Shown in pieces: positions 5,482 to 62,966 of a DNA stretch of 64,000 bases. The position numbers and the translations under genes are program-made. The notes below the pieces were generated by a model. That model was given only the letters and a program-made list of their open reading frames with translations, made no database searches and was not told the DNA's origin. The stretch's first letter is position 1. Each line of letters begins with the position of its first letter. Source of the stretch: Escherichia phage FL33; the sequence record PP400788. One strand, given 5' to 3'.

Positions 5482-5557
5482 TGGTCGAGGCAGTAGGGAT
5501 CGAACCTACGACCCAGGACTTAGAAGGTCCTTGCTCTTCCTTCTGAGCTATGCCTCG
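5482..5557 (-). tRNA. tRNA-Arg (anticodon UCU)
   Basis: 76-nt cloverleaf: acceptor 5486-5492/5551-5557 fully paired, T-loop fwd GATCGAA, anticodon stem 5515-5519/5527-5531, loop CUUCUAA, CCA encoded (fwd TGG 5482-5484). Confidence 0.85.
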
Positions 5558-5561
5558 TATT

Positions 5562-5636
5562 TGGCGGACGTGATAGGATTCGAACCTATAACCAATCGCT
5601 TAACAGGCGATCGCTCTGCCATTGAGCTACACATCC
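5562..5636 (-). tRNA. tRNA-Asn (anticodon GUU)
   Basis: 75-nt cloverleaf: acceptor 5566-5572/5630-5636 (one G-U), T-arm ATAGG-ATTCGAA-CCTAT, anticodon stem 5595-5599/5607-5611 perfect, loop CUGUUAA, CCA encoded. Confidence 0.75.
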
Positions 5637-5640
5637 AAAT

Positions 5641-5727
5641 TGGTGGGGAGTGGTGGAGTCGAACCACCCGAGTCGCAATGACAATGGATTTACAGTCCAC
5701 ACCGCTACCTCTACGGGATAACTCCCC
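5641..5727 (-). tRNA. tRNA-Tyr (anticodon GUA), long-variable-arm type
   Basis: 87 nt: acceptor 5645-5651/5721-5727 perfect, T-arm GGTGG-AGTCGAA-CCACC, anticodon stem 5684-5688/5696-5700 (one G-U), loop CUGUAAA, CCA encoded. Confidence 0.7.
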
Positions 5728-5736
5728 AAATTAATT

Positions 5737-5811
5737 TGGTGGCCCTGGGTGGAATTGAACCACCATCTGGCGATTATGAGTCGCTTGCTTGAACCTTCCA
5801 GCTACAGGGCC
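5737..5811 (-). tRNA. tRNA with anticodon CAU (Ile-lysidine type or Met)
   Basis: Acceptor 5741-5747/5805-5811 perfect, T-arm GGTGG-AATTGAA-CCACC, anticodon loop CUCAUAA; position corresponds to T4 tRNA-Ile. Confidence 0.75.
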
Positions 5812-5812
5812 T

Positions 5813-5888
5813 TGGTGCTGATTGACGGAATTGAACCGCCGACCTTCTCATTACAAGTGAGTTGCTCTACCTACTGAGCTAAATCAGC
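5813..5888 (-). tRNA. tRNA-Thr (anticodon UGU)
   Basis: Acceptor 5817-5823/5882-5888 perfect, T-loop fwd AATTGAA, D stem GCTC/GAGC, anticodon loop CUUGUAA, CCA encoded. Confidence 0.8.
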
Positions 5889-5894
5889 AAAATC

Positions 5895-5984
5895 TGGCGG
5901 AGGCGATAGGATTTGAACCTATGAGTCGCCGGAGCGACTGCCGGTTTTCAAGACCGGTGCATTAAACCACTCTGCCACGCCTCC
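5895..5984 (-). tRNA. tRNA-Ser (anticodon UGA), long-variable-arm type
   Basis: 90 nt: acceptor 5899-5905/5978-5984 perfect, T-arm ATAGG-ATTTGAA-CCTAT, variable-arm hairpin GTCGC/GCGAC, anticodon stem CCGGT/ACCGG, loop CUUGAAA. Confidence 0.85.
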
Positions 5985-5986
5985 AG

Positions 5987-6060
5987 TCTCCGTGGCAGGA
6001 TTTGAACCTGCGACATTCTGCTCCCAAAGCAGACGCTCTACCAAACTGAGCTACACGGAG
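5987..6060 (-). tRNA. tRNA-Pro (anticodon UGG); CCA not encoded
   Basis: Acceptor 5988-5994/6054-6060 perfect, T-arm GCAGG-ATTTGAA-CCTGC, anticodon stem TCTGC/GCAGA, loop UUUGGGA; abuts tRNA-Ser with a 2-nt spacer (dimeric precursor arrangement as in T4). Confidence 0.85.
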
Positions 6061-6072
6061 TAAATTAAATTT

Positions 6073-6144
<72 letters not shown>

Positions 6145-6149
6145 AAATT

Positions 6150-6236
6150 TGGTGCGAGAAGTGGGACTCGAACCCACAAGGAAATCATTCCGCAGCATTT
6201 TAAGTGCTGTGCCTTTACCAATTTGACCATTCTCGC
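6150..6236 (-). tRNA. tRNA-Leu (anticodon UAA), long-variable-arm type
   Basis: 87 nt: acceptor 6154-6160/6230-6236 perfect, T-arm GTGGG-ACTCGAA-CCCAC, anticodon stem CAGCA/TGCTG, loop CUUAAAA, CCA encoded. Confidence 0.85.
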
Positions 6237-6237
6237 G

Positions 6238-6310
6238 CTGGGAATAAAGGACTCGAACCTTTGCATCCTGGAATCAAAATCCAGTGCCTTACCAACTTGG
6301 CTAATTCCCA
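6238..6310 (-). tRNA. tRNA-Gln (anticodon UUG); CCA not encoded
   Basis: Acceptor 6239-6245/6304-6310 perfect, T-arm AAAGG-ACTCGAA-CCTTT, anticodon stem CTGGA/TCCAG, loop UUUUGAU; separated from tRNA-Leu by 1 nt. Confidence 0.85.
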
Positions 6311-7360: not shown

Positions 7361-7642
7361 CAAAAGATTTTTAGCAATAATTTTAAGCTGAGCTACTGAA
7401 ATATGCTTGGCTTTAAACAAAGCAGTTTCTTCAGCAGGGGAGATAACGATTGTAGCACCATCTTTCTTAGCGGACCATCCATCACCCAGGTAAACAGTAC
7501 CTTTGACTTCTTCGCCATCAACCAGGCTAATCATCGGTTTACCTTCACGTCCTTTGTTTGCTTTAATAACTTCAGAAGTAAGGGTCGCTTCAGTCAAAGT
7601 AGAAGCATTAGTCGTTGAAGTGAATTCTTGATAAGTTTTCAT
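7358..7642 (-). CDS. Internal protein (head-packaged) with canonical capsid targeting sequence
   Basis: 94 aa beginning MKTYQEF (T4 IP capsid-targeting sequence) followed by LTE/TSE candidate gp21 cleavage sites; sits in the ipI position upstream of 57B. Confidence 0.75.
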   Translation of the reverse strand: MKTYQEFTSTTNASTLTEATLTSEVIKANKGREGKPMISLVDGEEVKGTVYLGDGWSAKKDGATIVISPAEETALFKAKHISVAQLKIIAKNLL

Positions 7643-7667
7643 TTTATTTTCCTAATTAATTTTGATG

Positions 7668-8411
<744 letters not shown>

Positions 8412-8412
<1 letters not shown>

Positions 8413-9137
8413 TATAGTACCTTTAGTGTATTTTTAATTTTAGAAAAAAGTTCTTCAAGAGAACCATCGTTTGTAATTACTAAATCGCCATCACGAATTG
8501 GCAATCCAGCTTCTGTAATATGTGTATCATTGGATTTTTGACCAGGACGAACTACATGAATTACTGTAGCACCCATCGCCCTAGCCGCATCCATTTCATG
8601 ATCTTGACGGGTATCAGGAACGATATAATAATCATAACCTGAGTTAAATTTATCAAGATAATCTAAAGCAAATAATTTTACCCAATACATGCGGTCGAAG
8701 TTATTAACAATCAAATCCGTACCTAGGGCTTGCATCAGACGACGGACTGACCATTGATCTTCAATATTATTTATAACGTCAATAATCTTGTTAGATGCTA
8801 CGGAATTAACTGATTCTTGTCCTTCGTCATCAAAAACAAACACACCCTTAATTGGGCTTTTACCGTTAAGATAGCAAAATGCTTGTTCCATAATCGTGAT
8901 TACTTCTGATTTAGTCAGATTTAAATTAGTCTCACGATCATAGTCAATTCCTTCAAACTCTTTACGAGTTAAGCAAGGATAGTCAGTGTTTTCTGCAAAT
9001 ACGCCCCATGCATAAGCCAATGCATCCTTAATAGGACCAGCAAGTTGGTATTTAACTGCAGAATAATTGCTCATGATAAAATCAGCAGTAGTATCTTTTC
9101 CACTACGCTTTACACCGCTTAAAAAGATTAGTTTCAT
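8412..9137 (-). CDS. 1: Deoxynucleoside monophosphate kinase
   Basis: Start at ATG 9137 (MKLIFLSGVKRSGKDT, GAGGAG SD); P-loop GVKRSGKDT; track start 9176 rejected. Confidence 0.9.
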
Positions 9138-55769: not shown

Positions 55770-56734
55770 TGTATTCTTTAGAGGAATTTAATAATCAAGC
55801 AATAAACGCAGACTTCCAACGTAATAATATGTTTAGCTGCGTTTTTGCAACAACTCCATCAACTAAAAGCTCTTCGTTGATAAGTTCAATTAGCAACTTT
55901 TCTTATAATAACTTGGGCCTAAATTCAAATTGGTTAGGATTAACTCAAGGTGATATTAATCAGGGAATTACCACGCTAATTACAGCTGGCACACAAAAAC
56001 TGATAAGAAAATCAGGGGTTAGTAAATATCTTATTGGTGCCATGAGTCAACGTACAGTTCAAAGTTTATTAGGCTCATTTACAGTTGGTACATATTTAAT
56101 TGACTTCTTTAACATGGCATATAACTCATCTGGATTGATGATATACTCTGTAAAAATGCCAGAGAATAGATTATCCTATGAAACTGACTGGAACTATAAT
56201 TCTCCTAATATTCGTATAACTGGGAGAGAATTAGACCCTTTGGTTATTTCATTTAGAATGGATTCAGAATCATGTAATTATCGTGCAATGCAAGACTGGG
56301 TTAACGCTGTTCAAGACCCAGTAACTGGACTGCGTGCTTTGCCACAAGATGTCGAGGCAGACATTCAGGTTAATCTTCATGCTCGTAATGGATTACCTCA
56401 TACTGCTGTGATGTTCACCGGATGCATTCCGGTGTCAGTGAGCGCTCCTGAGTTATCATACGATGGAGATAACCAAATAACTACATTTGATGTTACTTTT
56501 GCGTATAGAGTCATGCAGGCTGGAGCGGTTGATAGACAAGCTGCGCTTGAGTGGCTTGAATCTGCTACTATAAATGGCATTCAAAGCGTTCTCGGAAATA
56601 GCGGAGGTGTTACTGGACTATCTAATTCGCTTTCACGACTTAGTAGATTAGGAGGAACTGCAGGAAGCATTTCAAACATTAATACTATGACAGGAATTGT
56701 CAATTCGCAAAGTAAAATATTAGGAGCAATATAA
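55769..56734 (+). CDS. 54: Tail tube initiator protein gp54
   Basis: 321 aa; start overlaps gp48 stop. Confidence 0.95.
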   Translation: MYSLEEFNNQAINADFQRNNMFSCVFATTPSTKSSSLISSISNFSYNNLGLNSNWLGLTQGDINQGITTLITAGTQKLIRKSGVSKYLIGAMSQRTVQSLLGSFTVGTYLIDFFNMAYNSSGLMIYSVKMPENRLSYETDWNYNSPNIRITGRELDPLVISFRMDSESCNYRAMQDWVNAVQDPVTGLRALPQDVEADIQVNLHARNGLPHTAVMFTGCIPVSVSAPELSYDGDNQITTFDVTFAYRVMQAGAVDRQAALEWLESATINGIQSVLGNSGGVTGLSNSLSRLSRLGGTAGSISNINTMTGIVNSQSKILGAI

Positions 56735-56736
56735 CA

Positions 56737-56768
56737 ATGGGGACCGAAAGGTCCCCATATTTTTATTT
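56737..56768. terminator. Bidirectional rho-independent terminator after gene 54
   Basis: GGGGACCGAAAGGTCCCC hairpin followed by ATATTTTTATTT. Confidence 0.8.
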
Positions 56769-57053
56769 ACGGAATGAAATAAAAGCAGCAACTGAAGCAA
56801 CTAAACTGTCTTCAATATAAACTTCAATTTTTACCGGAGCTTCTGACTCAAATTTACCTGTTACTACACCTTGGAAAATGCTTTCAGTCTGTTCTGGCTT
56901 TGAAAAATTTTCAGAAGGAAAAATTCCGAACTTTTTATCTGTTCCAAAAATTTTGATAAATTCGTCGTAAACCGCTTCATTAAAAGCGTTATCAGCAGGA
57001 ATAACGCCTTCAACTACGAGTTCTTGACCTAAAAAGCGCAAAGAAGATTTCAT
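56763..57053 (-). CDS. Hypothetical protein (alt.-3 position)
   Basis: 96 aa minus-strand ORF downstream of the Alt paralogs. Confidence 0.6.
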   Translation of the reverse strand: MKSSLRFLGQELVVEGVIPADNAFNEAVYDEFIKIFGTDKKFGIFPSENFSKPEQTESIFQGVVTGKFESEAPVKIEVYIEDSLVASVAAFISFRK

Positions 57054-57113
57054 TTTGTGTTCCTCATGTTATGTCAGTAAGATTACTATAACACAACACG
57101 AGGGACTTGTAAA

Positions 57114-59171
57114 CTACATCTTGAACTTTTTAGACATTCCGTTGATGTTAACCAAAGAAGCCAAGATTTGAGAAACTTCGTTTTCCTCTTCTTTTGATTC
57201 TTCTACAAGGAATTGATTAAATCCAGCCATTAGACGAACTTCACCAGTTTCCATTAGATGGTCGCCATCATATACCGATTCTTCTAATTGTTCAGAAGGA
57301 GGAACGATTGTGCCTTCGATTAGATACTTATTATAAGCAGTTTCTTTCATCATGTACGTACTCACTTTATTAATCTTCAGCAAAATTCCACGCGGTAAAA
57401 TAACTTCAGCTTCTGATGGAAATCCTGATAAATGTCCTGGAACGATAACTTTGATTCGCTCAGCTCCTTTAATTACCATACCCACGCTAGTTTCAGCATC
57501 TTCATTCGCATAAGCAGAGTGACTGCCCATATGCATCAAATCTTCTGCGTCAACTGAACCTTCTCCTTCACCAGAAAATACTGCGCCGGAATCATCTAGA
57601 GCCATATAGTTTTTACCATACTCACCGAAGATATTTGGTTTAAGCGATGTGGATACGAAGTTCTTGAAGTAGAACATTTTATTTTCAATATTATGACGTA
57701 AAGTTTTAAAGGTAACTTCTTGTCCACGGTAAAGCGTAGTTCCTGGAGGAAGAACTGATCCTTTGGCAAAGGCAGAATCCATTGTCTCGATGTGTTTAAT
57801 AGCTCGTTCCATATATTCTTCACGGGTAGAATCCGGTTTACCTAAAAGGAACGAGTTCATTTCAACATATGAATCTGCACAATAATCTTCAATTACATCA
57901 GACTCAGCCTGAGTTAATCCTTTTAGAGTTACTTCAGTACTTGCATATTCATACGCTTGAGAAGCAGACTCATTAATCAATTTATAAACGCCATTCATGA
58001 CAAATTGAACAATAGCTACCTTTTCATCTGGTGTGGCTTTAGAACCTTTAACTAAATCATTGACAATTTTCTTAATAACATCAAAGCTATTAGAAATATT
58101 AATGTCAGCGAGATCGCTCAAAATTTTATCGGTTTTATAATCAAAAAATTCTTTATTCTTTAAATATTCTTGAGAACCTTGATGTGTTATATCGCTCTGC
58201 AGTCTGATAGACGGATCACGTAAACGCGCGTGGGCCAATGCAATATGATTTCGGAAGTTTTCTAGTTCATAATCGTTAGATTTAAAACGAGAAGCACTTC
58301 TCATACCACCGATAGCTCCTTTGCTGAAGTTTGAACCAATCTGAATAACGCCAGAGTTCATTGGTCCTTCTGCTTTATATACCGGAACTTTAGATTCAAA
58401 CTCTTGATATTTCTTGGCAGCGAAGCTATCACCCTGAAGTGAAGCATCAACAGTAGAATATTGAGCTTGTGCTGCTAATCGACGACTAATTTTAGTTTTC
58501 TGAATAACAGCTTGATCAGTGCGCTTATCATTTTCTAAAGCAATAGAAGCAGCAACAGCGACAGCTTTAGGAACAGCATTACCTGTTTTAACGTCTACAT
58601 AAACATCACCAACCTTTGATTCAACTTTTGTGAATAACTCAGTTGAAATAGGAGGTACACCTGGAATGTCTTCTAAATTGGCATTTTTACGGTAAACCAT
58701 AATATATGCATATTTTTTATCATAGTCCCAGATTTCCTTTAAAAGAACATATCGACCTGCTCCCTTAGTACGTACTAAACGGTCAGCAATAACTTGCATT
58801 TGACGAGCTGCGCCATTTGTTTTACTCTTTAGTACGCGGAATAGGCATGCGTCGATTTTATACTGTTTCATTGTTTGAAGAGCAGTATCAAAAACAGCAT
58901 TAATGACGCCAATTGGATTTCCACCCAAGTTTCTAAGCTTAACCAGCGATAATTTCTCGTTGACACCTATCATTACGATATGCATCATTTTATCGCCCGG
59001 CTTAACGTTTTTATTTGTATCACCGCCAGAGGTGTATGTACAAAATCTAAATCCAGGAAGCACGCTTTCTTCACCGGCTTGAATAGCAAAAATTTGAGGT
59101 ATTTTATGCTTAGGATTTAAGTTAACAACCGGCGCCGAAGCGCCGTCAAATAATTCTGTAATAAGTTCCAT
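57114..59171 (-). CDS. Alt-family mono-ADP-ribosyltransferase paralog (alt.-2 position)
   Basis: 685 aa; N-terminal ~190 aa closely similar to the upstream paralog (MELITELFD..., QYKIDAC..., GRYVLLKEIWDYDKKYAY); C-terminal ART core with YRGQ (Arg), FVSTSL (STS) and EAEVILPRG (catalytic Glu) motifs. Confidence 0.8.
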   Translation of the reverse strand: MELITELFDGASAPVVNLNPKHKIPQIFAIQAGEESVLPGFRFCTYTSGGDTNKNVKPGDKMMHIVMIGVNEKLSLVKLRNLGGNPIGVINAVFDTALQTMKQYKIDACLFRVLKSKTNGAARQMQVIADRLVRTKGAGRYVLLKEIWDYDKKYAYIMVYRKNANLEDIPGVPPISTELFTKVESKVGDVYVDVKTGNAVPKAVAVAASIALENDKRTDQAVIQKTKISRRLAAQAQYSTVDASLQGDSFAAKKYQEFESKVPVYKAEGPMNSGVIQIGSNFSKGAIGGMRSASRFKSNDYELENFRNHIALAHARLRDPSIRLQSDITHQGSQEYLKNKEFFDYKTDKILSDLADINISNSFDVIKKIVNDLVKGSKATPDEKVAIVQFVMNGVYKLINESASQAYEYASTEVTLKGLTQAESDVIEDYCADSYVEMNSFLLGKPDSTREEYMERAIKHIETMDSAFAKGSVLPPGTTLYRGQEVTFKTLRHNIENKMFYFKNFVSTSLKPNIFGEYGKNYMALDDSGAVFSGEGEGSVDAEDLMHMGSHSAYANEDAETSVGMVIKGAERIKVIVPGHLSGFPSEAEVILPRGILLKINKVSTYMMKETAYNKYLIEGTIVPPSEQLEESVYDGDHLMETGEVRLMAGFNQFLVEESKEEENEVSQILASLVNINGMSKKFKM

Positions 59172-59174
59172 GAT

Positions 59175-61271
59175 TTATCCTTGAACGAACTTGTAAGGCA
59201 TGTTTGTAATATCTATGCAAGACGCAATAATTCCAAGAGATGATTCTACTTTCTGTTTAATATTTGATGAAACAAATGATGCAAAGTCAACTCTGTCTTC
59301 TATTTCAATATCACCTGTCATTGCAACTACTTCGCCGGTTTCCATTAAATGGTCTCCGTCATAGATTACCGATTCAGTGAGTTCTTCTGTGGTCATAACT
59401 TCAGCTTGAATGAGTTTTGTATTATTAGACGTGGTTCCGTCATTATTAGAAGCATCAGTTATTTTATTAACTTTAACCATCAATCCGCGCGGTAGAATAA
59501 CTTCAGCTTCTGTTGCTATTCCGAGACTTCCTGGATATACAACATTAACTTTATGAGCTCCATCAATTGCCCATCCTATTTGAACTTTAACGTATTCAGG
59601 ATTTTCTTTATACGCTCTTATTTCGTTTGGATTAATAGTTATTCCTTCTTCATTTTTATCAACCGTTAATTCGTTACGAGCTTCTGGTTCTAAAAGACCA
59701 ATACCAGCATGTGTAATTCCAAAACGCCCAAAAATGATAGGAGTTAAAGAAGTAGATACAAAATTTCTGAAATAGAACACTTTATTTTTAACTAGCGCTT
59801 CGTATATAGGAGCAGTCATACTTTGAGCACGATAAACTGTAATGCCTTCCGGTATGCGGTCACCATTTTCAAAAGCTGAATCTAAATTATTTATAGCAGA
59901 TTCAATTTCTTTTTCACTCATTACATCATATCGTTCTGGATTGTAACGACCTAAAAGAAGATTATTGATGTCAGTATATCCTGAACCACAATACTCTCTA
60001 ATGCCGCGCTTTTGTGATGGAGTATATTTAGAACCATCACGGGCAATAGTAATATCAATCATTGGACCTGCACCAATTCCAGAAAAACTATAAATCATTC
60101 TTTTGAGGAATTTAGTTTTTGCTGCGTTCCAGGAATTTTTAGTCATTTCTTCCCAGACTTCATCTGGCTGCCCTTTACGAGTTTTATTATGTTTATCAAG
60201 CCAATTATCTTTATATTCTTCAAAGAGTTGATTAACAGCTGCTGCGTATTTCTCTAAACATTTTATTGAAGTAGTTGGTTCATTTTTAATCGCATTAAGA
60301 ATTACATCTTTAATTTTTTCAGAAACTTCATTAACCTCACTTTTTGAAAAGAATTTATAGTCATAATGAAGTTCATTCGCAGTTCCTTCGGCAATAATTT
60401 TTGCTGCCTTAGTTTTAGAAGCTAATGAATTAATTCCAAGCTTCATTTCTTCTGCTTCGGGAATTAAAGGAGCGGTAGCAGGTTTATTGAAATTAGCTGC
60501 GGTAGATTCATACTTCTGGAATAATTCACTTTCAAATCTAGAAGATTCCAATGACTGACTTTGTGCAATTGCTCTACGGGAAATTTTAACTTTAACGATT
60601 ACAGCTTGGTCAGAACGTTTATCATTTTCTTGTGCAATAGATGCTGCAATTGCCTCATTTTTAGTTACTTGAGCTCCAGTATCTTTATTGATATAAACAT
60701 CACCGACCTTCGATTCAACTTTAGTAAAGAGCTCGGTACTAATTTCCGGAACCCCTGGAATGTCTTCTAGTGATACATTTTTGCGATGTATAAGAATATA
60801 TGCATACTTTTTATCATAATCCCAGAGTTCCTTAAGAAGGACGTATCTGCCACCTGAACGACTACGGATAAGTCTATCAGCAATAACTTGAATTTGTCTA
60901 GCTTGACCAGCAGTTTTAGACTTAAGAATACGGAGCATACAAGCATCAATTTTATACTGACGCATTGTTTGCATTGCAACAGTAAAAACCGAATTGATAT
61001 AATTAATTGGGCTTGGACCAAGACCTTTCAATTTAGCAATTGAACCTTTAGCAGTTAATGTAAAAGGAACAATATGCATCATTTTATCGCCCATCTTTAA
61101 ATCACGGTTAGTATCACCTCCAGATGTATAGGTACATAAACGAAAGCCTGGTTGCTCAATTGCGTCATCAACATGAACTGAAAAAATTTGCGGTATTTTC
61201 TTCTTTGGATTTAAGTTTGTAATCGGAAGAGTAGTATCTTCGTCAAATAATTCTGTAATAAGTTCCATCAT
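59175..61271 (-). CDS. alt: Alt ADP-ribosyltransferase (head-packaged, modifies host RNA polymerase in T4)
   Basis: 698 aa; ART core YRAQ / FVSTSL / EAEVILPRG; assignment of this copy as alt proper (versus alt.-2) is by position next to gene 30 and is not certain. Confidence 0.75.
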   Translation of the reverse strand: MMELITELFDEDTTLPITNLNPKKKIPQIFSVHVDDAIEQPGFRLCTYTSGGDTNRDLKMGDKMMHIVPFTLTAKGSIAKLKGLGPSPINYINSVFTVAMQTMRQYKIDACMLRILKSKTAGQARQIQVIADRLIRSRSGGRYVLLKELWDYDKKYAYILIHRKNVSLEDIPGVPEISTELFTKVESKVGDVYINKDTGAQVTKNEAIAASIAQENDKRSDQAVIVKVKISRRAIAQSQSLESSRFESELFQKYESTAANFNKPATAPLIPEAEEMKLGINSLASKTKAAKIIAEGTANELHYDYKFFSKSEVNEVSEKIKDVILNAIKNEPTTSIKCLEKYAAAVNQLFEEYKDNWLDKHNKTRKGQPDEVWEEMTKNSWNAAKTKFLKRMIYSFSGIGAGPMIDITIARDGSKYTPSQKRGIREYCGSGYTDINNLLLGRYNPERYDVMSEKEIESAINNLDSAFENGDRIPEGITVYRAQSMTAPIYEALVKNKVFYFRNFVSTSLTPIIFGRFGITHAGIGLLEPEARNELTVDKNEEGITINPNEIRAYKENPEYVKVQIGWAIDGAHKVNVVYPGSLGIATEAEVILPRGLMVKVNKITDASNNDGTTSNNTKLIQAEVMTTEELTESVIYDGDHLMETGEVVAMTGDIEIEDRVDFASFVSSNIKQKVESSLGIIASCIDITNMPYKFVQG

Positions 61272-61281
61272 ATCCTCTCTA

Positions 61282-61289
61282 GTGTTTAT
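61282..61289 (-). promoter_or_regulatory. Candidate late promoter (TATAAATA on minus strand) upstream of alt
   Basis: Forward TATTTATA at 61282-61289, about 11 nt upstream of the alt start; spacing is tight so the call is tentative. Confidence 0.4.
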
Positions 61290-61320
61290 TCTATTTATAA
61301 AATTAAAGGCCCGAAGGCCT

Positions 61321-61509
61321 TTAATAATCTAGTGGTAAGAGAGTACGATATATTTCAAATTTTGGACCTTTTTCATAGGCATCAAATGTTTCTGTGAATT
61401 TATTATAAGCATATGCATCTATAAATTCAAGCATGATTTGTGATACAGAAGTAGAAACATCTCCACCTTCTTTTTGAGCAATGACAATTGTTTCTAAGTA
61501 AGCTTTCAT
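61321..61509 (-). CDS. Hypothetical protein (alt.1 position)
   Basis: 62 aa ORF between DNA ligase and alt; start overlaps ligase stop. Confidence 0.55.
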   Translation of the reverse strand: MKAYLETIVIAQKEGGDVSTSVSQIMLEFIDAYAYNKFTETFDAYEKGPKFEIYRTLLPLDY

Positions 61510-62966
61510 AGACCAGTTACCTCATGAAAATCACCAAATACATCTTCGAATGTATTAGCTTTAGTTTTATCTTCACGTAAACGAATCGCAATCGGAAGAA
61601 ATAATTTAACGTAATCAGTACGGCCATCAGATTTTAACCAACCGTTGCATTCGCACTCTAGAATTTTTCCAATATAATAATTTTGGTTTTCCATAATGCG
61701 AGTACGGTCAAGTTCATGCGATTTTACGCCGGCTTTATCTTTTAAGCCTGAACCAGCATTTACCTTAATTTTTCCACACTCTGATTCAAGAATAAATCCA
61801 CCTGCTTTAGTAGGGTCTTTACGGTGAGGATAAATTCCTACAATTTTTAAATCAACATCAATTACTTCTTTAAATTTATAAAGATTTTTTGAACGAGCAT
61901 TTTCCCACAATCCATCGGTATTTTTGAGAATAATACCTTCAAGACCTTGGTCAATATATTTTTTATAAATTACCTTAGCTTCATCTAGGTTATTTACTAC
62001 TTGGTTTTCAATTAAAATTACTTTATCATATCCTGATGTCATTTGTTCTAGTTTAGAAAAACGTACATCATATTTTAAACGAAACGCCGGAAGACCGTAT
62101 ATTTCTACCAACGGAACATAATCCCAGACCTGAAACTTCATGCATTTGGCTTCTTTTTCTGAAATAGTTCCCTTTAAAGATTTATTGGCGATTCCATTAG
62201 AAGCAGTACGAGATTCAGCTACTTCGGCAAACTCTTTAGCTTTACTATTTTCAGGAGCATCAAAAAGAAAATCTAGGCCTTCTGGTTCCTTTTCAACTTG
62301 CTCATGGTATACCAATTCGCCATCGATTAACACGCCTTCTGGATGAATCTGGCGGGCTTCAGCAGTCATTTTGATTAACTCTTCCTTAAGAAGATCTAAT
62401 CCTAGGTATTCATTGCCAGCTCGCGATAAAAGACGAACATCATCTAATTCATCACCTCGGACTTCAGCAAAACACCGAGCTCCATCTGCTTTTAACTGCG
62501 CAAAAGCTGGAAATTTGATATTCTTACTAATGCCTTTTTCATCATAAGAACTTGCAAGCATTTGAGGTTGTTCAGGAATTAAACCTGGCCAAACTTTGTT
62601 TGCAATAGATACTGAAGCACCGCATTCAAGGTCTCGCATCATAACTCGACGTAGTACTTCAACATCATCCTTTTTACCATCGGTGATATATCCAGTTAAT
62701 TCCTCAATTGCTGCATTTCCAGTCAATTTCCGAGTAGCTAACGTAAATTCAATAAAGTCAAGCATATCGGTAATAGTCAGCATTCCAAAACTCTGGGTAG
62801 CAATACCGGGTTTAGGCCATTTCTTGATATAATACTGTAACCCACGAGAATAAGTCAGACGATATACTCGTTTAAGCAATTCATTATCTTTATTCTTTTC
62901 AAGAATTGCTTGCTTCTGCTTAGTTGATCCAATAGATGCTATTTCATTCAGAATTTTAAGAATCAT
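61506..62966 (-). CDS. 30: ATP-dependent DNA ligase
   Basis: 486 aa MILKILNEIASIGSTKQKQAILEKNKDNELLKRVY...; adenylation motif KADG (AQLKADGARC). Confidence 0.97.
   Translation of the reverse strand: MILKILNEIASIGSTKQKQAILEKNKDNELLKRVYRLTYSRGLQYYIKKWPKPGIATQSFGMLTITDMLDFIEFTLATRKLTGNAAIEELTGYITDGKKDDVEVLRRVMMRDLECGASVSIANKVWPGLIPEQPQMLASSYDEKGISKNIKFPAFAQLKADGARCFAEVRGDELDDVRLLSRAGNEYLGLDLLKEELIKMTAEARQIHPEGVLIDGELVYHEQVEKEPEGLDFLFDAPENSKAKEFAEVAESRTASNGIANKSLKGTISEKEAKCMKFQVWDYVPLVEIYGLPAFRLKYDVRFSKLEQMTSGYDKVILIENQVVNNLDEAKVIYKKYIDQGLEGIILKNTDGLWENARSKNLYKFKEVIDVDLKIVGIYPHRKDPTKAGGFILESECGKIKVNAGSGLKDKAGVKSHELDRTRIMENQNYYIGKILECECNGWLKSDGRTDYVKLFLPIAIRLREDKTKANTFEDVFGDFHEVTGL

Follow-up and report, generated by a model that had tools for sequence, protein, structure and literature searches.

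Alt is a textbook example of host reprogramming by a phage enzyme that is injected together with the DNA. To our knowledge, essentially all Alt experiments have been carried out in T4. The T4 literature describes T4 Alt (gpAlt, NP_049811) as an arginine-specific mono-ADP-ribosyltransferase, which is part of the prohead core, is trimmed by the prohead protease gp21 and, once injected along with the DNA, modifies host proteins as soon as infection begins. It is cleaved at ITE-6 and LTE-619, sites established by mass spectrometry, to give a 68.2 kDa protein (PMC5694885), and the 'E577A' substitution kills activity (PMC11404850). T4 also carries ModA and ModB, likewise tandem ADP-ribosyltransferase (ART) paralogues of the R-S-E type in one phage, with different host targets. 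Unlike the Alts, these are early, unpackaged proteins of ~200 aa without N-domain, centre or propeptides (literature, e.g. PMC5512222); they are a precedent for division of labour between ART paralogues. The bacterial ART toxins C3, VIP2, iota-Ia, CDTa and Vis resemble the Alts in their catalytic fold and carry the same R, STS and ExE residues. They are delivered by bacterial secretion or as binary toxins, whereas Alt is delivered by the capsid, and the non-catalytic domains are unrelated.

Duplications of alt were already noted by Nolan et al. 2006. Pairs or triplets in the same tandem arrangement as that analysed here are found in Tevenvirinae (RB14 alt + alt.-2, T2, T6, PP01, Dhakavirus WG01 ORF199-201, 44RR ORF187c). 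Our window, the whole 64,000-nucleotide stretch analysed, is 100% identical to record PP400789.1 (Escherichia phage FL34, the name used below). FL34 is essentially no different from these annotated pairs and triplets: at least 338 records span at least 80% of its alt locus at 95-99% identity. Many related records annotate the pair as 'Alt-like RNA polymerase ADP-ribosyltransferase (x2)'; in the FL34 GenBank record both genes are labelled 'hypothetical protein'. The intact tandem pair is the usual arrangement of the genus, already known and annotated, and it reveals no new kind of system.

Layout and expression signals of the alt locus

The alt locus consists of two tandem minus-strand ORFs (59175..61271 and 57114..59171) with a 3-nt spacer, ATC, at 59172-59174 (Table 1). 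The upstream gene, AltA, adjoins alt.1 and the DNA ligase gene gp30; gp29-48-54 are also adjacent to the locus. A preliminary description had given two genes of 685 and 698 aa, 3 nt apart. Both ORFs and the gap stand, with the correction that the upstream gene is likelier to encode 697 aa. AltA has 698 aa if counted from the first ATG (61271) and 697 aa, starting with MELITE, from the second (61268). The second is most likely the true start, since a GAGGA Shine-Dalgarno lies 4 nt from it and merely 1 nt from the first, and since the same start is found in T4 Alt and in the GenBank annotations of FL34, RB14, T2 and T6. NCBIfam gave no match, nor did Rfam within 56500-61700, and short plus-strand ORFs (53-69 aa) inside the alt genes were discarded as being without support.

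Table 1. Features of the FL34 alt locus (window coordinates; ↓, predicted cleavage)
Feature	Position	Strand	Remarks
AltA	59175..61268	-	697 aa; positional orthologue of T4 alt; T6/T2/RB14-type allele
AltB	57114..59171	-	685 aa; second paralogue, named 'alt.-2' in RB14
alt.-3	56763..57053	-	96 aa, DUF5498; closes the leftward block
T4-type late promoter box TATAAATA	61292..61299	-	exact match; 21 nt upstream of AltA first ATG
GC hairpin + T-run	~61307-61320		after alt.1, before AltA promoter box
Second TATAAATA	59888..59895	-	inside AltA, ~717 nt upstream of AltB start
Shine-Dalgarno AAGGA for AltB	59178..59182	-	within AltA's final codons; 6 nt before AltB ATG
Bidirectional intrinsic-terminator hairpin	56737..56758	.	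between gp54 (+) and alt.-3 (-)
AltA predicted propeptide			aa 1-6
AltA predicted N-domain	60555-61268	-	to aa ~238
AltA predicted centre	60033-60554	-	aa 239-412
AltA predicted ART	59373-60032	-	aa 413-632
AltA predicted C-propeptide			aa 633-697
AltB predicted propeptide			aa 1-6
AltB predicted N-domain	58458-59171	-	to aa ~238
AltB predicted helical centre	57927-58457	-	aa 239-415
AltB predicted ART	57279-57926	-	aa 416-631
AltB predicted C-propeptide			aa 632-685; predicted cleavage LEE631↓S632
AltB segment missing from T4	57134..58823	-	~aa 117-679; flanks joined at CT(T/C)TTTAG microhomology

The late promoter box has 24 matches across the window, against 9.1 expected. With one box ahead of AltA and gp29-48-54 alongside, the locus shows the late-transcription feature beside baseplate/head genes, which AltB would share through co-transcription with AltA, as suggested by a gap too small for any promoter. 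The layout also points to translational coupling, since the AAGGA of AltB sits inside the end of AltA, which stops with TAA (59175-59177). The box inside AltA is a candidate late promoter that could serve AltB. Downstream, alt.-3 is preceded by a sigma70-like TTTACA-17-TATAGT (57085-57113) of its own, together with a GAGGA Shine-Dalgarno. The hairpin that follows it (9-bp stem, 6 GC pairs, T-runs on each strand) is probably the end of the alt transcription unit.

Domain architecture, catalytic residues and processing sites

The PHROG 802 profile matches both proteins end to end (AltA 1-697, E = 1.5e-273; AltB 1-685, E = 2.1e-253), and Pfam PF03496 is found in each (E = 1.3e-37 and 2.1e-20, respectively); close homologues bear precomputed PF26846 and PF03496. 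Judged by these profiles, AltA and AltB are full-length members of the Alt family. A PDB sequence search with AltB gave no direct match, and with the Alt family profile ART toxins were the sole PDB matches. Pfam and a structural match of the catalytic domain in the predicted model assign AltB to the R-S-E clade ART fold (C3/VIP2/iota). For the N-domain, a GNAT acyltransferase fold was considered and is a tentative candidate.

Each protein is predicted to comprise four parts: a 6-residue propeptide (MELITE↓) with a ~230-aa alpha/beta N-domain nearly confined to Alt-like proteins; a ~180-aa all-helical centre, which is hypervariable throughout the family and whose AltA and AltB sequences are unrelated; an ART domain of the C3/VIP2 class, carrying R, S-T-S and E-x-E; and an acidic C-terminal propeptide of 54-65 aa, predicted to be cut off after a conserved L-x-E. 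T4 Alt has the same architecture, genomic position, late promoter, R/STS/ExE and both gp21 motifs.

Pairwise alignment of the two proteins (41% identity overall, E = 6e-158, BLASTP) bore out the earlier view of tandem paralogues with conserved ends and divergent centres, and all the motifs then quoted were found in the two ORFs. Its dimensions had to be revised: the conserved N-terminus extends over ~238 aa instead of ~190, and the unalignable part of the centre covers ~180 aa (~239-415) instead of ~300, the ART domain containing a further variable stretch of ~40-60 aa (AltB 519-556). By region, identity is 50-83% over the ~238 N-terminal aa, drops to 7-25% in the centre and is 33-57% within the ART core, the cores as a whole being 39% identical. 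The two centres gave no BLAST match with each other and an hhalign probability of 2.3%. Direct DNA repeats across the alt genes, at a spacing of 2094-2097 nt and far beyond chance, confirm a tandem duplication. Recent gene conversion between the N-domains was rejected, since their nucleotide identity is merely 53-79%, except in the first 31 nt of the genes (97%).

The catalytic residues are R480, S505-T-S507 and E587-A-E589 in AltA, and R482 (57726-57728), S507-T-S509 (57645-57653) and E587-A-E589 (57405-57413) in AltB. Arg, STS and ExE are invariant in six paralogues, and 58-59 of 61 representatives of the family have them. The ExE of AltA and AltB aligns with the EYE of CdtA, and E577 of T4 Alt is evidently the second Glu of this motif. 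The preliminary description had taken loss of the catalytic Glu, Arg or STS from one copy as the sign of a pseudo-enzyme; both copies are intact. It had also proposed a shared packaging/processing module, which holds at the level of motifs, I-T-E and L-x-E↓S occurring in both proteins. The N-terminal site is MELITE↓LFD in AltA and AltB alike, and the predicted C-terminal sites are ELTE↓SVIYDGD (AltA) and QLEE↓SVYDGD (AltB), the latter in a low-confidence linker of the predicted model (residues 629-636). Both prohead-protease motifs of T4 Alt are thus retained, cleavage itself being predicted. (L/I)4-x-E6 and (L/I)629-x-E631 are kept in 57-58 of the 61 family representatives. A mass calculation reproduced the 68.2 kDa of T4 Alt and predicts 70.1 kDa for processed AltA and 69.2 kDa for processed AltB.

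Cassette exchange and the T4 remnant of the second copy

AltA is 70% identical to T4 Alt overall, with sharp regional differences: ~100% over aa 1-246, 15-40% in the centre, ~64% in the ART domain and 93-98% at the C-end. At the nucleotide level, the initial ~735 nt are 97-99% identical, the centre 40-54% and the end 93-98%. AltA differs from T4 Alt, then, by a different centre+ART cassette. AltB is 41% identical to T4 Alt overall, its centre being without detectable homology. In Dhakavirus WG01, ORF199 is of AltB type and ORF200 of AltA type. Identity between FL34 AltA and ORF200 reaches 95% in the ART domain and 66% in the centre (81% at the nucleotide level for aa 227-646) and falls to 47% in the N-domain; for the neighbouring gp48, gp54 and ligase it is 60-64% between the two phages. 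N-domains group by phage, with 63-68% identity within a genome and 42-47% between genomes, and alleles reassort, all four combinations occurring. From these comparisons, centre+ART behaves as an exchangeable cassette, the N-domain following the phage lineage. The cassette is bordered by the conserved N-domain on one side and the SV(I)YDGDxLMETGE motif on the other. Phages accordingly differ in the number of distinct cassettes, from one (T4, which also has a remnant) through two (FL34, T2 and T6) to three (WG01).

Conserved ends with a variable centre are the pattern of the whole Alt family. Among 57 representatives, centres fall into 39 BLAST-unlinked types, and their median pairwise identity is 10.5%, versus 36-37% for the flanking domains. 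Within each type, centre dN/dS is 0.07-0.16; for AltB as a gene (FL34, RB14, T6, phiC600P9), dN/dS is 0.04-0.08, indicating strong purifying selection. A phmmer search with the N-domain against 1.84 billion representatives gave 69 matches, almost all 600-712 aa long, a profile search added truncated Alts only, and a Pfam scan found PF03496 in 59 of 61 N-domain family members. A MuF-like use of the N-domain as a delivery module for other kinds of effector was discarded at the sequence level, these searches returning Alt-like proteins only. Two remote members without recognisable ART (P0183, P0184) match cultured phages via the N-domain only. Putative matches of the N-domain at the remote structure level (BFVD; A0A075E0T7, A0A0A0YVG6, A0A513QBT8, A0A2L0UZ96) point to large phage proteins with zeta-toxin, ParB or deaminase domains.

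Whether T4 itself has both copies at full length had been left in doubt. Its second copy is a deletion remnant: alt.-1/alt.-2 corresponds to an AltB-type gene lacking a 1.69 kb internal segment and carrying a frameshift. By blastn, T4 (L001) 7600-8113 matches window 56618-57133 (96.7%) and 8105-8600 matches 58824-59326 (94.4%). alt.-1 corresponds to AltB aa 1-56 (PHROG 23015) and alt.-2 to ~aa 62-117 (PHROG 15247). According to their GenBank note, the T4 ORFs duplicate 'the first part of gene alt'; the alignments indicate, on the contrary, a deletion derivative of the full-length paralogue, with the same gene of origin as AltB. The FL34 pair is accordingly not made up of plain, undiverged orthologues of T4 alt and alt.-2, the other outcome foreseen in the preliminary description. 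The deletion junction is contiguous in 91 of 499 related records; ~401 records, T2, T6 and RB14 included, have an intact AltB centre at least 90% identical. T4 is thus atypical: ~80% of its sequenced relatives, T2 and T6 among them, have a second intact Alt-type enzyme, and in many the first alt gene is a different allele as well. These differences could explain phenotypic differences among T-even phages. As T4 and ~90 relatives thrive without AltB, it would be dispensable on laboratory hosts.

Roles of the two paralogues

We consider it probable that the locus is a late two-gene operon of two functional Alt paralogues, most likely with different sets of host-protein targets. Our own results show that the genes are intact, belong to the family, have the catalytic and cleavage motifs and are under purifying selection; they also show the deletion in T4 and the mosaic pattern. 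Packaging, processing and injection come from the T4 literature, while the packaging of AltB and its distinct targets are inferred. AltA and AltB would most likely ADP-ribosylate different host proteins. That the centre helps to choose the targets, as the diversified target recognition proposed in the preliminary description would have it, is a hypothesis for AltA/AltB and for T4 Alt alike. The literature searched, in which a single relevant paper mentions 'alt.-2', held no experimental data on AltB function or AltB-type virion proteomics.

A wider reading is more tentative. AltB might be a second capsid-delivered ART with its own targets, possibly in counter-defence, which has escaped notice through its deletion from the model phage T4; alt might then be an effector array, polymorphic and with one to three slots, in which the lineage-specific N-domain is recombined with horizontally exchanged cassettes, and the delivery fold may recur on other large phage proteins.

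The same ART class, an ExE typical of arginine specificity, the shared processing motifs and the common operon would also suit a redundant isoenzyme, which modifies AltA's targets (RNA polymerase alpha etc.) and is kept for a higher injected dose or as back-up, the more so as T4 Alt is promiscuous, with ~27 targets (Depping 2005, as cited in PMC5512222). We find this unlikely, given the limited identity of the ART cores, the different residues just ahead of ExE (SGFPSEAE in AltA, LGIATEAE in AltB), the lack of homology between the centres, the persistence of both types as separate lineages across genera (WG01) and the purifying selection acting on each. About equally doubtful is that centre variation serves mainly to evade host-defence sensing and not target choice, two copies and swapping then reflecting an arms race over detection. 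The extreme diversity of centres, the horizontal movement of cassettes and their polymorphic presence or absence agree with it, but the centre is under purifying selection within each type, its near-constancy in the ~401 AltB records is a misfit with ongoing diversifying selection, and a search of the literature turned up no defence system that senses Alt.

That the AltB duplicate is decaying or has become a pseudo-enzyme, like its T4 counterpart, is highly improbable. Its loss is tolerated, T4 and the 91 related records holding a deleted, frameshifted remnant, but the reading is already contradicted by the FL34 gene as read: an intact ORF of 685 aa that contains the segment missing from T4, has all catalytic residues, a good ribosome-binding site and a low dN/dS, and is intact in ~401 records. 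Somewhat less remote, though still improbable, is an AltB made late that stays unpackaged and acts within the producing cell. ModA and ModB are a precedent for non-virion ART paralogues, and AltB packaging is so far deduced from T4; against this, AltB still has the N-domain specific to Alts as well as the ITE propeptide and, at the C-terminus, the L-x-E site, its gene start is nearly identical to that of AltA, and it lies in the late alt operon beside baseplate genes.

The alt locus and its two genes

Between positions 56700 and 61600 the window matches Escherichia phage FL34 (PP400789.1) at 100% identity and several hundred Tequatrovirus genomes at 95–99%. The plus-strand order gp29-gp48-gp54 is followed on the minus strand by alt.-3, two large ORFs, alt.1 and the DNA ligase gene gp30. 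ORF coordinates and the ATC spacer confirm two adjacent Alt-type genes 3 nt apart, as a preliminary description had proposed. Its size for the downstream product (AltB, 685 aa) stands; that of the upstream one (AltA, 698 aa) probably does not. The AltA ORF carries two in-frame ATGs, preceded by a GAGGA Shine-Dalgarno at distances of 1 nt and 4 nt, respectively, and T4 Alt and every annotation checked start at MELITE. This spacing and start point to a product of probably 697 aa. In the FL34 deposit (RASTtk), both Alt genes and the small flanking genes alt.1 and alt.-3, which have Pfam families, are each a 'hypothetical protein'; related RefSeq entries name Alt-like ADP-ribosyltransferases (ART).

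Features of the alt locus and the tRNA cluster (window positions)
Feature	Position	Strand	Remark
AltA ORF	59175-61271	-	698 aa from first ATG
Spacer AltA/AltB	59172-59174		ATC, 3 nt
AltB ORF	57114-59171	-	685 aa
alt.1	61321-61509	-	PF24647 'Phage blade protein' match, 1.6e-29
alt.-3	56763-57053	-	DUF5498 match, 1.4e-64
Late-promoter box TATAAATA	61292-61299	-	directly after hairpin behind alt.1
Second TATAAATA	59888-59895	-	within AltA
Bidirectional terminator	56737-56758	.	beyond alt.-3
10 tRNA genes	5482-6310	-	Arg, Asn, Tyr, Met(CAT), Thr, Ser, Pro, Gly, Leu, Gln

AltA and AltB are 41% identical (BLASTP, E = 6e-158). In a sliding comparison, amino-acid identity is 50–83% over columns 1–240, 7–25% over columns 240–435 and 33–57% in the ART core. 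A further part of the ART domain could not be aligned either, and a conserved block SV(I)YDGDHLMETGEV lies near the C-end. Direct DNA repeats spaced by 2094–2097 nt follow the same pattern. The conserved ends and divergent centre noticed earlier are therefore upheld by pairwise alignment, with shifted boundaries: the N-terminal block (N-domain) covers ~238 aa rather than ~190, and the centre ~180 aa rather than ~300. Family-wide, median pairwise identity is 37% in the N-domain, 10.5% in the centre, 36% in the ART, 10% in the ART loop and 30% in the C-terminal tail, and 57 representative centres fall into 39 BLAST-unlinked groups; the pattern therefore characterises the family at large and is not peculiar to this pair. 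No homology was found between AltA-group and AltB-group centre profiles (hhalign probability 2.3%).

The gene starts are closer still. Positions 59144–59174 and 61241–61271, with the first ~28 coding nt (MELITELFD), are identical at 30 of 31 nt, all synonymous sites included, the remaining N-domain DNA being just 53–79% identical. A translation-initiation or targeting-peptide constraint, or local gene conversion, is possible.

Catalytic residues, processing and proposed function

Both proteins match PHROG 802 end to end (AltA, E = 1.5e-273; AltB, E = 2.1e-253) and Pfam ADPrib_exo_Tox (1.3e-37 and 2.1e-20). Upon alignment to the binary-toxin enzyme CdtA, the YR and E-A-E of AltA fall on its catalytic Arg and E-Y-E. 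Neither copy is a pseudo-enzyme by its core residues, which are R480, S505-T-S507 and E587-A-E589 in AltA and R482, S507-T-S509 and E587-A-E589 in AltB. They are unchanged in six paralogues from three phages, except for a middle Thr to Ala in one copy of Escherichia phage WG01 (Dhakavirus), and are found in 58–59 of 61 representatives of the whole Alt family. T4 Alt 'E577A' has no catalytic activity (PMC11404850); since RefSeq T4 Alt (NP_049811) has its ExE at E574/E576 and a Val at 577, the numbering of that study is presumably shifted by one.

By mass spectrometry, T4 Alt lacks six N-terminal (motif ITE-6) and 63 C-terminal residues (LTE-619), and mature T4 Alt is 68.2 kDa (Ali et al. 2017, PMC5694885), in agreement with the 68.2 kDa computed for residues 7–619. 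Cleavage is predicted after MELITE in both proteins and at ELTE632/SVIYDGD in AltA and QLEE631/SVYDGD in AltB, the latter inside a low-confidence linker (residues 629–636) of the predicted model. Predicted mature masses are 70.1 kDa (AltA) and 69.2 kDa (AltB); both C-propeptides are acidic (pI 4.2–4.6). Across the 61 family representatives, the N-site has L or I at position 4 in 54 and E at position 6 in 58; the C-site has L or I at position 629 in 50 and E at position 631 in 57, with S-(V/I)-Y-D-G-D coming next. The conserved ends thus fall at both motifs for the prohead protease gp21 and their propeptides, which at sequence level supports the shared packaging/processing module suggested in the preliminary description.

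The AltB Shine-Dalgarno (AAGGA) lies within the final AltA codons, with no space for a promoter of its own. AltA and AltB would be co-transcribed and translationally coupled, and the box within AltA might provide extra AltB-specific late transcription.

Taken as a whole, these features are probably best explained by two late, packaged, gp21-trimmed and injected Alt enzymes with different substrates. Both would be synthesised late, directed to the prohead core, trimmed by gp21 at both ends and injected with the DNA; in the host they would act as arginine-specific mono-ADP-ribosyltransferases, whose different substrates would be due to the helical centre, the ART loop, which varies, and the residues that differ just ahead of the ExE. 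Packaging and injection of Alt come from the T4 literature; gene integrity, motifs, selection and mosaicism were established here. We infer that AltB is packaged and that its targets are distinct from those of AltA.

That the two enzymes are redundant is unlikely, and we give the same low weight to centre diversity arising from evasion of host sensing instead of target choice. It is less likely still that AltB is not packaged. Decay of AltB as a duplicate is hardly credible, being contradicted by its intact ORF, its catalytic residues and a dN/dS of 0.04–0.08 among orthologues of FL34, RB14, T6 and phiC600P9. In these four phages dN/dS is lowest in the N-domain (0.00–0.04) and highest in the centre (0.01–0.14), which is under strong constraint despite this regional maximum. 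No functional characterisation of AltB was found in the literature searched.

Mosaic alleles and the T4 remnant

AltA and T4 alt are positional orthologues but different alleles. Nucleotide identity between them is 97–99% over the first ~735 nt, 40–54% in the centre (15–40% amino-acid), 60–78% in the ART and again 93–98% across the final ~180 nt. Centres form three populations by tblastn: at 90% identity or more, 315 records carry the FL34/T6-type and 174 the T4-type (~30% identical to the former). All four allele combinations exist: T4-type with a deletion (T4), T4-type with AltB (phiC600P9), T6-type with AltB (FL34, T2, T6, RB14) and T6-type with the deletion (SG1, BYEP02).

WG01 (KU878968.1, L007 446-6558) carries three tandem paralogues of 707, 693 and 631 aa, so the alt locus holds one to three slots, varying by phage. 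ORF199 is AltB-like (centre 46%, ART 60%), ORF200 AltA-like (centre 66%, ART 95%) and ORF201 of a third type, which lacks the YDGD tail. N-domains cluster by phage (67% identity within FL34, 63–68% within WG01, 42–47% between them). FL34 AltA and ORF200 share 81% nucleotide identity over aa 227–646, flanking gp48, gp54 and ligase only 60–64% protein identity. Together these values show that the centre-plus-ART cassette moved between genera, the N-domain being kept by lineage.

In T4, alt.-1 (61 aa) and alt.-2 (67 aa) come after alt (682 aa); the T4 GenBank note already explains them as the opening part of alt, duplicated long ago. The remnant translation starts MELITELFDGASAPVV..., which is the AltB N-terminus, and the alt.-1 and alt.-2 PHROG families match AltB residues 1–56 and 62–117 far more strongly than AltA. 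Two collinear blastn blocks join T4 (L001) 7600-8113 to window 56618-57133 (96.7%) and 8105-8600 to 58824-59326 (94.4%); window 57134-58823 is therefore absent from T4. The junction lies at a CT(T/C)TTTAG microhomology, with an additional frameshift. These data show that alt.-1/alt.-2 derive from a full-length AltB-type gene, intact in the window, whereas T4 lost an internal segment, and not from a partial duplication. T4, about which the preliminary description was unsure, does not carry both copies at full length. Its state is the minority: 91 of the 499 matching records have a contiguous T4 junction, against 401 records with the AltB centre at 90% identity or more. The 697 + 685 aa pair occurs in T2, T6 and RB14 alike, the second gene being named 'alt.-2' in RB14.

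The identical sequence is publicly available, and in hundreds of database entries the pair is labelled Alt-like (x2). Nolan et al. 2006 listed alt duplications, among them T4 alt.-1/alt.-2 and a 44RR copy of full length, and dual Alt processing was published (PMC5694885). The present analysis adds modestly to this: the precise extent of the T4 deletion and its occurrence in a minority of records, both cleavage motifs family-wide and cassette exchange with lineage-bound N-domains.

Distribution of the N-domain

The N-domain is Pfam PF26846 in precomputed annotations. With AltB residues 1–240, phmmer retrieved only 69 hits among 1.84 billion representative proteins, nearly all of 600–712 aa with the domain N-terminal; 59 of 61 scanned proteins have an ART domain. 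A profile search added only truncated or split Alts. As a sequence-level module on non-Alt proteins the N-domain was thus rejected, both searches returning Alt-like proteins only, and it is Alt-specific at this level. Two remote metagenomic proteins, P0183 (485 aa, with K/N in place of the Arg and the first Glu) and P0184 (541 aa), have an Alt N-domain without a recognisable ART domain; their C-terminal parts had no match in the phage collection.

Foldseek of the AltB N-domain model (m01b8e71ad5fe, window 58452-59171) against predicted viral structures (BFVD) placed Alt homologues on top. Subsequent matches were uncharacterised proteins of 530–1280 aa (E = 1e-8 to 1e-4, TM ~0.5, 11–15% identity, probability 1.0) from Ackermannviridae-like, Vibrio and jumbo phages (Dickeya RC-2014, Erwinia phiEa2809, Shigella MK-13, Vibrio Kuja, VP-1, Agrobacterium Atu_ph07), a few with zeta-toxin, ParB or deaminase annotations. 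These models hint that the fold could serve more widely as a delivery module.

Some Alt sequences (P0192-P0194, P0033, P0061) are assigned to bacteria in NCBI (Escherichia coli, Shigella sonnei, Enterococcus faecalis), some as 'partial'; they are most likely T4-like phage DNA within bacterial assemblies. T4 has eight tRNA genes; relative to these, tRNA-Asn and tRNA-Tyr are presumably the FL34 extras.
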